Part shown: one piece after another, positions 15,542 through 27,007 of the stretch | Numbering within the stretch: the first letter of the stretch is position 1 | Layout of the letters: every line of letters starts with the position of its first letter | Sequence record: DRR378314_1160 | Strand: one strand, 5' to 3' | Length of the DNA: 32,177 nt | Made by a program: the position numbers and the translations under genes | The notes under the pieces: generated by a model | The model's database searches: none | Told to the model about the DNA's origin: nothing | The model's input: only the letters and a program-made list of their open reading frames with translations

Positions 15542-16155
15542 CCGAGCGTATCATCACCCAGCCCGGAGCGTCCCACGCGCTGTCATGGGGCATATCACAG
15601 TGCTCCAAGTTCGCCGGCAGCAGTGGTGATGGCTACATGCTGCTGCGTGAAGGGCCGAATATCCGTATCTACGTTGTCGATGGGATGGGAAGCGGGACCG
15701 AGGCCAATGCTGCCGCCGACACGGCGTTAGCCAACCTCAGGGAGTCGGATTGTAACGACATGGAAATGGCGTTTGGAAAGGTACATTCGGCCCTGCATGG
15801 TATACGGGGCGCAGCGCTGGCCGGAGCCCAGATAAATCTCGAACAGATGACTTTGTTTTGGACCGCGGTCGGAGACATAGATGGCGCACTCGTGCGCAAC
15901 GGCAAGATCGCCGAAAGCCTGATCCAGTCGAGTGGAACGCTCGGACTGATCTACAATGGTGTGTGCCTGGCGCGCGTGCCGCTGCAAGTCAACGACATGA
16001 TCGTCATGGCCACGGACGGCATCAGCCGCAATTACCGCTCCGACCTCCACACCGATCTCCCAATCATCGATATCGTCACAGGCATTCTCAGACACCACGG
16101 GCGCCGCGCGGATGACCGGCTCGTCCTTGGTCTCAAGGTGGTGACATCGCCATGA
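15538..16155 (+). CDS. rsbX: PP2C/SpoIIE-family feedback phosphatase RsbX
   Basis: SGDGY, VVDGMGSG, RGAA, VGDI, ATDGI, ADDR PP2C motifs. ATGA overlap with rsbT. Confidence 0.85.
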   Translation: MTERIITQPGASHALSWGISQCSKFAGSSGDGYMLLREGPNIRIYVVDGMGSGTEANAAADTALANLRESDCNDMEMAFGKVHSALHGIRGAALAGAQINLEQMTLFWTAVGDIDGALVRNGKIAESLIQSSGTLGLIYNGVCLARVPLQVNDMIVMATDGISRNYRSDLHTDLPIIDIVTGILRHHGRRADDRLVLGLKVVTSP

Positions 16156-17357
16156 TTGACCACGACAACAAGAGCCGCATCAATGCTGCCCGATCCTTTG
16201 ATCAAAGCTATGCAGCGGCGCTCGCAGCCTATGTTTATGACGGCAACGAAGAGGATCTGTCCCGAGCCTACGATTGCGCCAGGCAGGCATTGCAGACCTC
16301 GATTTCGATCGGGGAGCTTGGCGAGCTCCACTTTCGTGCGGCGCAGACGTTGTGCAGTGGATCACAGTCCCCCTCACCCGAGACCGTACGGACCGAGGAG
16401 TTTTTTCTCGAGGCAATTTCCGTCTATGATATGGCATTGCGCGGCTATGGCGAAAGCGTGACCCAGCTAACCGCAGAGGTGCAGGAGCGCAAGCGCGTGG
16501 AATATGAGCTGCGCGACGTGACCTTCGAACTGGCCCGACAGCGAGACAGCTTGGATCAGCAGGTCAAGACGCGCACACGCGAGCTGCAAAGGGGACTGGA
16601 AGAACTACGCCAGCTCAACAGCCAATTGCAGCAGGCCAATCAGGAACAGGCGCAATTCACCTATGCCATTTCCCATGATTTGAAATCGCCAATAAATACG
16701 ATAGCAATGATGTTGGATATCCTGTCGGTTGATCACCAACGACACTTGGATCCCGAAAGCTTCGAGCTCATTGACGCTGCCCAAGCGACCGCGTCCCGCA
16801 TGTCGCGGATGATCAACGATATCCTGCAGTATGCCCGGCTTGTCGGCCAGGAGGCGGAATTTGAGACCGTATCGCTCGATAGGCTGTGCCGCGAAGTTCG
16901 CGATGACATGCGCCATGAAATCACGGATGGACAGGCCGCGATCGACATCTCTCCCCTCCCCGATGTGCGAGGAATGCCGTCACAATTGCGCAGCCTGTTG
17001 CAGAACCTGCTGTCCAACGCGATTAAATTCCGCGACCCGGCACGCCCCTGCCGCATTACCGTATCCGCCGTGTCGCACCCGCACAATTGCGCTGCTGAGA
17101 TTAAGGTCAGCGATACTGGAATTGGCATACCAGAAGCCTATCGCACCCGAATTTTCTCACTGTTTCAGCGACTACACACCTACGACCAATACTCTGGCTC
17201 CGGGATCGGACTGACACTTTGTCAACGCATCGCCGGATACCATTCCGGGGACATTCACGTCGTCGAGAATGCAAGACAGGGAAGCACTTTTATCGTCAGA
17301 TTCTGGGTCAAAGAAAGGGAGCCTGACAATGACACTCAACCGCGTGATGATCATTGA
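16152..17357 (+). CDS. Cytoplasmic histidine kinase with N-terminal RsbU_N-like (RsbT-binding) domain, coiled coil, HisKA and HATPase
   Basis: H-box FTYAISHDLKSP, N-box QNLLSNAIKF, G1 DTGIGI, F-box RIFSLFQRLH, G2 GSGIGL. No hydrophobic transmembrane stretch. ATGA overlap with rsbX. Confidence 0.9.
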   Translation: MIDHDNKSRINAARSFDQSYAAALAAYVYDGNEEDLSRAYDCARQALQTSISIGELGELHFRAAQTLCSGSQSPSPETVRTEEFFLEAISVYDMALRGYGESVTQLTAEVQERKRVEYELRDVTFELARQRDSLDQQVKTRTRELQRGLEELRQLNSQLQQANQEQAQFTYAISHDLKSPINTIAMMLDILSVDHQRHLDPESFELIDAAQATASRMSRMINDILQYARLVGQEAEFETVSLDRLCREVRDDMRHEITDGQAAIDISPLPDVRGMPSQLRSLLQNLLSNAIKFRDPARPCRITVSAVSHPHNCAAEIKVSDTGIGIPEAYRTRIFSLFQRLHTYDQYSGSGIGLTLCQRIAGYHSGDIHVVENARQGSTFIVRFWVKEREPDNDTQPRDDH

Positions 17358-18466: not shown

Positions 18467-18506
18467 TCCAAGGCGGGCATGCGATCGACCATTGTGTAGT
18501 GTGTTG

Positions 18507-18536
18507 GGGGCCTCTCTTGGGGCCCCTTGTTACTTT
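18507..18536 (+). terminator. Probable terminator hairpin between convergent genes
   Basis: GGGGCC...GGCCCC stem followed by T-rich TTGTTACTTT. Confidence 0.5.
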
Positions 18537-24901: not shown

Positions 24902-25693
24902 TTAATCAAGGATCTCGGTCGCCAGTCTCGTGTCGCTCAATTCCTGATCGAGCAGCACGTAGATTTCCTCGGGTGGGGTATTCAGGGAATGCACCATCAC
25001 GCCGGGGTCCACTCCCATCTCGATCAGATACTCCATGGTGCGGCCCTGACCATGCTGGATTTCCTCTACAGCGAGAAAGGCAGGCAGGTAGCCGGGAGTA
25101 TTATAATAATGCTGATGCATCCCGACTGAGGCGGCACTCGACACGCGGCGCGCGATGCCGCCCGCCAGCAGATAAGGGCAGCTCGACAGGCAGATCGTAC
25201 CCGGCAGAACTGCTGTTTCCATCTCCATTCGCCGTATGGCACGGCCCAGCGCCAATGCCTCTTGCACCACGCCGCCGGGACTGTTCAGGGCGACGCCCGC
25301 CGGAACCTCGTCCATACTGTCGAGATAGGTTTGAAACTGCTCTGCATCCCCTTCGGAAATTTGACCGGTCACTAGAAGCAAGGACCCCAGATCCTCCGTC
25401 TCCATCACACTGAAGTTCAACCTCGAGGGCATGTTTGCCGGCGTCTCCACACCTGGCGCAGGGTCGCGCCGCACATAGCTTGGCGACACGGTGGCCGGAT
25501 CATACTCCCGCCACTGGTCCCCGGGCGAAACCGGCCCCTGCGGCAGATCCCGGCGGCTTGCCCCGCCCGTTGGCCACTGCCCCAGCAAATCGGTGGCCAG
25601 GACCGCCGCGGCAATAGCGCATTGCCCCAACAGCGCATATCGCAGACTGCGCGCAAGCGTGATATCGGCGAACCACTGACCGCGTGAAGACAT
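24902..25693 (-). CDS. Membrane-anchored ClpP/crotonase-fold hypothetical protein (putative Ser peptidase)
   Basis: N-terminal hydrophobic anchor. GQISEGDA, LNSPGG, CLSSCPYLLAGG..R and VGMHQH parallel ClpP motifs. Confidence 0.65.
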   Translation of the reverse strand: MSSRGQWFADITLARSLRYALLGQCAIAAAVLATDLLGQWPTGGASRRDLPQGPVSPGDQWREYDPATVSPSYVRRDPAPGVETPANMPSRLNFSVMETEDLGSLLLVTGQISEGDAEQFQTYLDSMDEVPAGVALNSPGGVVQEALALGRAIRRMEMETAVLPGTICLSSCPYLLAGGIARRVSSAASVGMHQHYYNTPGYLPAFLAVEEIQHGQGRTMEYLIEMGVDPGVMVHSLNTPPEEIYVLLDQELSDTRLATEILD

Positions 25694-25696
25694 GCG

Positions 25697-27007
25697 CTAC
25701 TCCGCGGCCTTGTCAGAGCTGGGCGCCAGCGGCGCTGATCGCCCCGGATCTGATCGGCGGTCGAGATCGGTGTCTGCAGCTGCCATCGTGGTCTCTACGT
25801 CGCGCATCGCATTGAGGGCTGCCTTCAGATCCGACAGTGTGAGCGTCTCCTCGACACTGATCCCATCACGCCCACTGCGAATTGCCGCCTGTGTGATCGC
25901 CAATACAAAGACAAGAATGGCCGGCAACAGATCAATGGCAATCGCCCCGGCCCACGAGGGGACGAAATTACCCGCATACCGGATCACCGCATCGGCGCTG
26001 GAGATCGGATTATAAACCGTCTCGGCGGGTGGTTCGAGCGCCAGCACCTCATCCGCCGCCCGCTTCAGGGTCTGACTGCGCTGATCCAGAGCACTCAACA
26101 CCGACGCAATCGTAGAGGACTGAGCCGCGCGCACGTCGGAGTTTCGCCCATCCAGTTCCGGCAGGACCACGGACGCAGGCAGATCCTGTGCCGCCCGTGT
26201 CACGAGCGTGGCCACCGAATACTGGTTCAAGCTCGCGATCACCCCGGCAAGCCGCACGCTTTCCTCAGCAAACAGGACCGAACGCTGATCAACCGGTCCC
26301 GGAGCCACGGTCAATTCACGCATCCGTCCAAGGATCCGGTTTCCTTCTTCAAACGCCGCCGTGATCAGGGGGGACTGCGCGGCGATCTGCTGTTCGAGGT
26401 TCGAGAGTTCCTCTGTCTTCTGGGTGAGGACACGAAACACCGCCCCCTCGCCCGCCGCACCGGAGAGATCACCCGAACGTTCCTGATCCGCCAGCGCCTC
26501 AAACGTTTGCCGGGCACGCTCAACCTCGCGGCCCAGCGCCTGCCCCGACAGTGCGATTTCATGGGCGCGTTCCAATCCGCCCTGATAGTCGCGCACGGTG
26601 TTTTCCAGATGTTGTTCCACTGCGGCCGACCCGGCCAGCGCCGCCGCGTTCAACCAGCTCGACATGGCAATGATCGCAAACGATCCGATGATCGTGGACA
26701 GGACCAAACCAACCAGCCCGGACGCTGTCCGCATCGCGGGCAGCAACCGCATCATGTAGCTCCAGAACACAAAGATCCCGACAGACACCGCGACCGAATA
26801 GGCCACCGCCGCAAAAAAGCTCATGGCGCCGGTGTCCTCCAGCAGAGAGCTGACACCAAGATAGGTATAGATGCCGGACGCCACCGCGAGCACACCCAGC
26901 GCCGCGGGCGTGAAGGACTCCAACCACTTCACATGGCCCTCAAGCTCCCGCGCAGCACGGAGCCCCTTTGTTTCTGCAGCAGTCAGATGAGGGTCAGAAC
27001 GGGCCAT
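25697..27007 (-). CDS. Hypothetical membrane protein (N-terminal TM bundle, long helical/coiled-coil region, C-terminal TM)
   Basis: 436-aa ORF with about 3 hydrophobic segments in aa ~33-125, an Ala/Glu/Gln/Arg-rich helical middle, and a TM at WAGAIAIDLLPAILVFVLAI. GGAG RBS. 3 nt from the downstream gene. Confidence 0.75.
   Translation of the reverse strand: MARSDPHLTAAETKGLRAARELEGHVKWLESFTPAALGVLAVASGIYTYLGVSSLLEDTGAMSFFAAVAYSVAVSVGIFVFWSYMMRLLPAMRTASGLVGLVLSTIIGSFAIIAMSSWLNAAALAGSAAVEQHLENTVRDYQGGLERAHEIALSGQALGREVERARQTFEALADQERSGDLSGAAGEGAVFRVLTQKTEELSNLEQQIAAQSPLITAAFEEGNRILGRMRELTVAPGPVDQRSVLFAEESVRLAGVIASLNQYSVATLVTRAAQDLPASVVLPELDGRNSDVRAAQSSTIASVLSALDQRSQTLKRAADEVLALEPPAETVYNPISSADAVIRYAGNFVPSWAGAIAIDLLPAILVFVLAITQAAIRSGRDGISVEETLTLSDLKAALNAMRDVETTMAAADTDLDRRSDPGRSAPLAPSSDKAAE

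Follow-up and report, generated by a model that had tools for sequence, protein, structure and literature searches.

An RsbU_N histidine kinase behind a haem-globin stressosome: a predicted dock for RsbT with a two-component output

Introduction

The closest described relatives of the system considered here are proteobacterial histidine kinases that carry an RsbU_N domain and are encoded after globin-RsbR rsbRSTX genes. Two papers place such kinases in stressosome operons, name Ruegeria and propose that RsbT orders the linker (Heinz et al., 2022, PMC9237108; Baral et al., 2025, PMC12143880). The survey of globin-RsbR RSTX modules in Communications Biology states that some Alpha-, Beta- and Gammaproteobacteria encode a downstream protein that looks like RsbU_N at its N-terminus, a likeness that "strongly suggests" signaling under stressosome control (Heinz et al., 2022). 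In eLife, RsbT was reported to bind the N-domains of RsbU together with the linker and to rigidify the latter; the same authors find such kinases in operons with rsbT, present an AlphaFold2 dimer of one of them and draw RsbT as bringing order to linkers in "proteins with RsbU NTD" (Baral et al., 2025). Neither paper, in its available text, contains an experiment on an RsbU_N histidine kinase, and the searchable text of the Heinz et al. supplements returned no occurrence of Ruegeria, Tritonibacter, Leisingera, Phaeobacter, Epibacterium or RsbU_N. Here a 401-amino-acid (aa) kinase of this type is described from a 32,177-nucleotide (nt) stretch of sequence record DRR378314_1160, which as a whole is called the window, and its putative coupling to the stressosome genes beside it is weighed.

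Other systems resemble the window kinase in part. Bacillus subtilis RsbU has a homologous N-terminal four-helix domain that is likewise joined by a helical linker to an effector acting as a dimer, and the RsbT interface predicted here lies at homologous positions and at the start of the linker. The effector of RsbU, however, is a PP2C domain behind a linker of ~30 aa, whereas the window kinase has HisKA and HATPase_c domains behind one of ~70 aa. Another example is Moorella thermoacetica MtG, reportedly, from a 2012 study by Quin et al., an RsbU_N-GAF-GGDEF diguanylate cyclase under stressosome control. MtG also bears RsbU_N on a non-phosphatase effector and is encoded with RsbR, RsbS and RsbT, but its output is cyclic di-GMP instead of a His-Asp phosphorelay, and an extra GAF domain separates its dock from its effector. 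RsbRST output modules are said to have been surveyed first by Pane-Farre et al. in 2005. Vibrio vulnificus and V. brasiliensis share with the window a homologous globin-STAS RsbR, the RSTX order and a two-component protein downstream; in contrast to the window kinase, their downstream proteins have no detectable RsbU_N (Heinz et al., 2022).

Architecture and gene order in the window are the same as in the proteobacterial RsbU_N kinases, and nothing substantive differs from what is described for those (Heinz et al., 2022; Baral et al., 2025). The original prediction for this locus had proposed that RsbT released from the stressosome would directly switch autophosphorylation of the kinase. Since both papers already propose as much, that idea is a published hypothesis. 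The architecture is already known, and the window adds a member from the Ruegeria/Tritonibacter lineage.

A Kinase with RsbU_N as Its Sole Input Domain

The kinase is encoded by the fifth of six co-oriented, abutting genes, in the order globin-RsbR, RsbS, RsbT, RsbX, kinase and regulator. It had been described beforehand as an RsbU N-terminal-like domain acting as the only sensor, followed by a long coiled coil and a HisKA/HATPase core, and every element of that description was recovered. The residues quoted in its favor are present, and positions 16194-16450 are codons 15-99 of the open reading frame (ORF) at 16152-17357 (+). Pfam RsbU_N (PF08673) matches aa 18-95 over its full profile (1-75 of 75) with 33.1 bits (expect value, E, 6.5e-8), where the gathering cut-off is 25.5 bits. 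No PAS, GAF or other sensor family rises above its Pfam cut-off anywhere in the kinase, and the remaining matches are coiled-coil noise within aa 71-255, each well below cut-off. The highest 19-residue Kyte-Doolittle mean is just 0.71, so the kinase is predicted to be soluble, with no membrane helix.

The order of parts is RsbU_N, a helix of ~70 residues, HisKA and HATPase_c. For aa 1-165, AlphaFold2 with a 57-row alignment gives a model whose mean predicted local distance difference test (pLDDT) score is 94.8 and whose helices lie at 2-30, 33-48, 53-68 and 76-164. The last of these runs unbroken up to the HisKA boundary, with block pLDDT of 96-98. In a 16-sequence alignment, H175 in the SHDLKSP H-box is conserved together with the N, G1 and G2 boxes, and N289, D321/G323/G325 and G349/G351/G353 vary little or not at all. 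By these motifs the protein is assigned to the class I (HisKA) sensor histidine kinases. A Pfam search found no SpoIIE/PP2C domain in its 401 aa, HisKA and HATPase_c standing in that place; an RsbU orthologue, which would carry the C-terminal phosphatase domain, was considered and rejected on this ground.

One public protein (P0001, 353 aa, on a 4.4-Mb contig) is identical to the kinase over residues 1-269, beyond which the two sequences part and the public one stops short. Its HATPase_c domain is missing, and it resembles either a copy with a frameshift or a fault of assembly in an almost identical genome.

Homology of the N-Terminal Domain to RsbU

A profile built from 57 N-termini of the family matches the B. 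subtilis N-RsbU entries 2j70, 2j6z, 1w53 and 2j6y in the PDB with E between 1.2e-7 and 4.5e-6, the match covering residues 7-86 of the N-RsbU chain. A single-sequence phmmer search of PDB chains with kinase aa 1-165 came back empty, even at E <= 10. When aa 1-105 were searched against 1.84 billion cluster representatives, phmmer gave 261 matches at E <= 1e-3, and Pfam identifies RsbU_N in 145 of the best 150 of these. On such profile statistics the RsbU_N assignment is more than a chance resemblance.

In a Foldseek search with the model, the N-RsbU entries 1w53, 2j6y and 2j6z occupy ranks 2-5, with target-normalized template modeling (TM) scores of 0.63-0.67 and probabilities of 0.92-0.96, at E of 0.35-0.39 and a root-mean-square deviation of 5.6 A. 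The modeled fold of the N-domain is consistent with N-RsbU, on weak statistics, and is not taken as evidence of a shared fold. Residues E24, Y28, I74 and I78 of RsbU are implicated in RsbT binding, as cited by Baral et al. (2025). The family-profile alignment pairs these with kinase residues E33, S37, L86 and S90. E33 is identical to E24 and is conserved in at least 90% of relatives, and L86 is a conservative replacement of I74.

Conservation of the Stressosome-Kinase Linkage

Eighty related loci were collected from a scan of genome_contigs, which covers isolate genomes and metagenome-assembled genomes. A word-indexed search found 17 homologues of the kinase, those with names coming from Phaeobacter, Arenibacterium and Leisingera. 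The closest locus, at 84% identity, is that of Tritonibacter scottomollicae, a taxon to which "Ruegeria scottomollicae" also refers.

By tblastn with the six window proteins, the N-domain is present in 20 of the 80 loci. All 20 of these kinases match RsbU_N at E <= 0.01, with 12 above the gathering cut-off. RsbR, RsbS, RsbT and RsbX lie directly upstream, in the same order and on the same strand, in 18 of the 20, even though the kinases of these syntenic loci are only 42-84% identical to that of the window; their RsbT proteins are 59-89% identical. A receiver homologue follows the kinase in 17 of the 20, and the three loci that have none are L030 and L049, which end with their contigs, and L015.

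Three records deserve separate mention. In Mangrovicoccus (L013:7962-9074), the kinase ORF has neither the first helix nor an upstream start codon and lies behind FAA-hydrolase-like and GntR-like ORFs. A complete RsbU_N domain is found at L014:924-2087, on a contig of 2.4 kb. Novosphingobium sp. MW5 (L056:5614-9154) retains only fragments of RsbR (residues 39-226), RsbS (74-115), RsbT (10-107) and the kinase (205-375), a pattern that suggests a decayed copy of the operon.

A Modeled Complex of the Kinase with RsbT

A multimer model with the cognate RsbT had been named as a check on the proposed docking, and its outcome was favorable: the ipSAE is 0.83 (runs of 0.82, 0.83 and 0.83) vs 0.00 for all three controls. 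Two copies of kinase aa 1-165 were modeled with two copies of RsbT, no alignments were used, and the score refers to the RsbT partner alone. In calibration, 51 of 78 solved complexes attained this mark, as did 2 of 108 mismatched pairs; the present two-copy job differs in kind from those. The runs share at least 95% of their contacts, of which there are 162-166, and the pLDDT of the partner is at least 83. At E <= 0.001 the PDB holds no RsbT chain, the best matches being chains of SpoIIAB, so memory of a solved RsbT complex is an unlikely source of the score.

The predicted contacts of the kinase are residues 32-34, 36-37, 40, 44, 47-48, 52, 54-55, 57-58, 82-83, 86-87, 90-91 and 93-95, to which the linker adds 97-99 and 101-103. 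The four residues aligned with the RsbT-binding positions of RsbU (E33, S37, L86 and S90) all fall inside this interface. Invariant residues are enriched there in both proteins: 10 of 15 in the kinase, where the interface takes up 29 of 105 positions (p = 7.5e-4), and 17 of 47 in RsbT, where it takes up 25 of 139 (p = 1.2e-4). Residues R24 and R28 of the partner RsbT presumably correspond to R19 and R23 of B. subtilis RsbT, which is given as a lead only. The model supports RsbT binding at the RsbU_N domain as a prediction.

Exchange of Input Domains

The original prediction also held that domain shuffling had replaced the RsbU phosphatase with a kinase core. Modular exchange is indeed seen, but the direction given to it is one of two equivalent descriptions. 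A further 36 loci (within L018-L055, plus L071) match the kinase core only, from about residue 100-165 onward. Their sensors include CHASE5 (17), GAF (7), SBP_bac_3 (3) and others, RsbU_N occurs in none of the 36, and 30 of them have a receiver homologue close downstream. Because the closest kinase cores sit in cassettes of a kinase and a receiver-only protein with other sensors, one could equally hold that RsbU_N took the place of the sensor in a kinase-receiver pair that was already there. The best 150 relatives of the RsbU_N domain carry HisKA in 53 cases, HisKA_3 in 15, SpoIIE in 10 and GGDEF in 1; these counts are lower bounds, since the 150 include many fragments, and there is a bias in the set toward relatives of the kinase-borne domain. 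Judged from such domain combinations, fusion of RsbU_N to a kinase appears to be a common modular exchange.

A different arrangement is found in Chitinophagaceae and Puia, where RsbR/S/T/X homologues lie upstream of a related kinase core (L061, L073, L066, L068, L076 and L078). An RsbU_N dock was sought in the kinases of two of these loci, L061 and L073, and is absent from both, which begin with HATPase_c_2. This RsbT/RsbW-like domain is fused to HisKA-HATPase_c at L061:7479-8759 and L073:7485-8756, and the other four start similarly. The fusion appears to represent a different coupling of a stressosome to a histidine kinase.

Gene Organization of the Locus

The features of the locus are collected in Table 1. 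RsbR and RsbS are 4 nt apart and RsbS and RsbT 1 nt; rsbX overlaps rsbT at the rsbT stop, the kinase gene overlaps rsbX through a shared ATGA, and the regulator overlaps the 3' end of the kinase gene by 29 nt. The start of rsbX is ambiguous, in that ATG 15526 overlaps rsbT by 16 nt whereas with the in-frame ATG 15538 the two genes would share an ATGA at the stop of rsbT. With a sensor STAS protein, a STAS antagonist, a GHKL kinase and a single-domain PP2C phosphatase that are adjacent and co-oriented, the first four genes are classified by sequence as an rsbRSTX module. The best PDB sequence match of RsbR is chain B of 7o0i, matched over its full length (E 5.4e-37); it is a 306-residue "anti-anti-sigma factor" from an entry that also holds an RsbS chain. 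RsbS matches the RsbS chains of 6jhk, 6qcm and 7o0i (best E 4.3e-21), and its DSF serine motif aligns. The six genes form one operon, made up of a haem-globin stressosome and a two-component output.

Table 1. Coordinates of the operon genes, the domains of the kinase and the gene that follows
Feature	Coordinates	Strand	Basis or remark
RsbR-like co-antagonist, 320 aa	13800..14762	+	Pfam Protoglobin aa 35-189 (E 1.9e-35), STAS aa 205-297
RsbS-like antagonist, single STAS, 117 aa	14767..15120	+	Pfam STAS E 3.9e-14
RsbT-like GHKL switch kinase, 139 aa	15122..15541	+	Pfam HATPase_c_2, HATPase_c
RsbX-like single-domain PP2C feedback phosphatase, 209 aa	15526..16155	+	Pfam SpoIIE/PP2C aa 45-169, E 1.6e-8
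Soluble class I histidine kinase, 401 aa	16152..17357	+	ORF; ATG overlaps rsbX stop (ATGA)
RsbU_N domain, aa 18-95, predicted RsbT dock	16203..16436	+	Pfam PF08673, family-profile PDB match, modeled interface
Long helical linker, aa 96-165, RsbU_N to HisKA	16437..16646	+	AlphaFold2 model
HisKA dimerization/phospho-acceptor domain, aa 166-230	16647..16841	+	Pfam PF00512, E 1.1e-13
HATPase_c catalytic ATP-binding domain, aa 276-385	16977..17306	+	Pfam PF02518, E 8.3e-23
Receiver-only response regulator, 130 aa	17329..17721	+	Pfam Response_reg aa 6-119; AAAGGGAG precedes start
CHAP-domain protein, 180 aa	17924-18466	+	200-nt gap after regulator

The flanking genes are unrelated to the system. Upstream lie an AraC regulator and a sugar ATP-binding cassette (ABC) system, and downstream the CHAP protein, an enolase-family enzyme and a GMC oxidoreductase. 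The CHAP gene was considered as a member of the system and is treated as a neighbor, because no loci beyond the five closest (L001-L005) keep it in that position. A strong terminator-like hairpin is found near it at 18506-18527. No gene for Hpt, PhyR, a sigma factor or an anti-sigma factor was found among the 28 other ORFs of the window, and the window holds no RsbV, RsbW or sigma-B module. For two adjacent long ORFs of 263 and 436 aa, at 24902-25693 (-) and 25697-27007 (-), Pfam gave no match at E <= 1e-5.

Proposed Mechanism and Its Alternatives

It is likely that RsbT released from the stressosome docks on the kinase and thereby switches its His-Asp output. At rest, RsbT would be held on the RsbR/RsbS core, and the trigger would probably be loss of O2, by analogy with the globin-RsbR of Vibrio. 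Free RsbT would then bind the dimeric four-helix RsbU_N domain and the first turns of the linker, and binding would order or re-register the long coiled coil that leads into HisKA. This would alter both H175 autophosphorylation and the passing of phosphate to the receiver-only regulator, and RsbX would reset the core. Of the ground on which this proposal stands, the domain architecture, the packing of the operon, the synteny kept among loci and the N-RsbU homology of the N-domain are shown. The RsbT-kinase interface is predicted by the complex model, we infer both the release of RsbT on signal and an RsbT-dependent change in autophosphorylation, and activation is assumed, by analogy with RsbU, as the sign of the effect. 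As far as structure prediction and comparative genomics go, the original prediction is supported.

Several points weigh against it. Two of the 20 N-domain kinases (L013 and L014) have no stressosome genes upstream. Foldseek gave no fold match for the N-domain at E <= 0.001, and C-domains of KaiA score alongside N-RsbU. Only one of the four RsbU contact residues is identical in the kinase (E33) and one is conservative, while Y28 and I78 are both replaced by Ser. Conservation at the interface could equally serve folding or dimerization. The sequence reveals neither the direction in which the kinase is regulated nor what the regulator acts on, and a literature search that left most subscription journals uncovered found no experiment on RsbT with an RsbU_N histidine kinase. 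Finally, V. vulnificus RsbT showed no detectable interaction with the downstream two-component protein, which itself lacks RsbU_N, according to Heinz et al. (2022).

Among the alternatives, the one that survives best, while still rather unlikely, accepts that RsbT binds RsbU_N but has it switch the kinase off or into a phosphatase mode, so that the regulator is phosphorylated at rest and dephosphorylated on signal. The synteny, the N-RsbU profile match and the complex model speak for binding here just as they do for activation, and many HisKA kinases are bifunctional. Because the linker is ~70 aa long vs ~30 in RsbU, the read-out of the signal need not equal that of RsbU. Nothing in the sequence favors an inversion, however, and the only characterized case is one of activation, through ordering of the linker and dimerization of the catalytic domain, as described by Baral et al. 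(2025).

It is improbable that RsbT acts instead as an enzyme that transiently phosphorylates the kinase on Ser/Thr, with RsbU_N serving mainly as a dimerization module. RsbT does retain the ATP-binding motifs of HATPase_c_2, a diguanylate cyclase of Moorella is phosphorylated by an RsbT homologue (per Jia, 2016), and Heinz et al. (2022) propose RsbT-dependent phosphorylation of downstream sensor kinases, although in loci without RsbU_N. The window kinase carries that domain, its modeled interface with RsbT is large (162-166 contacts) and confident, and no phospho-acceptor site was identified in it. Going by the title alone of a 1998 study by Kang et al., the kinase activity of RsbT is reportedly not needed for activation of RsbU.

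Slightly less probable still is a third possibility, namely that RsbU_N is a relic or a plain dimerization domain, that the kinase is constitutive or otherwise controlled and that the linkage reflects co-transcription only: it draws on the two kinases without stressosome genes, on the two of four B. subtilis contact residues that are not conserved and on the frameshift after residue 269 in the near-identical public copy, which hints that the kinase gene is possibly dispensable, but the synteny holds in 18 of 20 loci despite 42-84% kinase identity, the invariant residues concentrate at the predicted interface in both proteins and the complex model passes three of three controls.

Implications for Gram-Negative Stressosomes

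If RsbT does dock on the kinase as proposed, a protein partner would have taken the place usually occupied by a small-molecule sensor, a view that follows from the CHASE5, GAF and solute-binding sensors found in the same cassette elsewhere. The mode of transduction would possibly differ from the disorder-to-order switch of RsbU. A more far-reaching version, in which haem and O2 would act through release of RsbT on the register of the unusually long (~70 aa) coiled coil and from there on His-Asp signaling, would be the first direct biochemical read-out of a Gram-negative stressosome; this is offered as an unlikely, speculative extension. In this version the receiver-only regulator might feed a wider pathway, for instance the switching between motility and attachment or the alphaproteobacterial general stress phosphorelay.

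The wider question is which targets the stressosomes of Gram-negative bacteria act on, and how RsbT relays a signal without a sigma-B cascade. Loci of this type are the cleanest place for an in vitro test of the "exchangeable toolkit" model of Baral et al. (2025), because they combine a recognizable RsbT dock with a simple soluble kinase and a single cognate receiver. The value of the window lies not in a new concept but in a compact, well-defined test system from a harmless marine bacterium.

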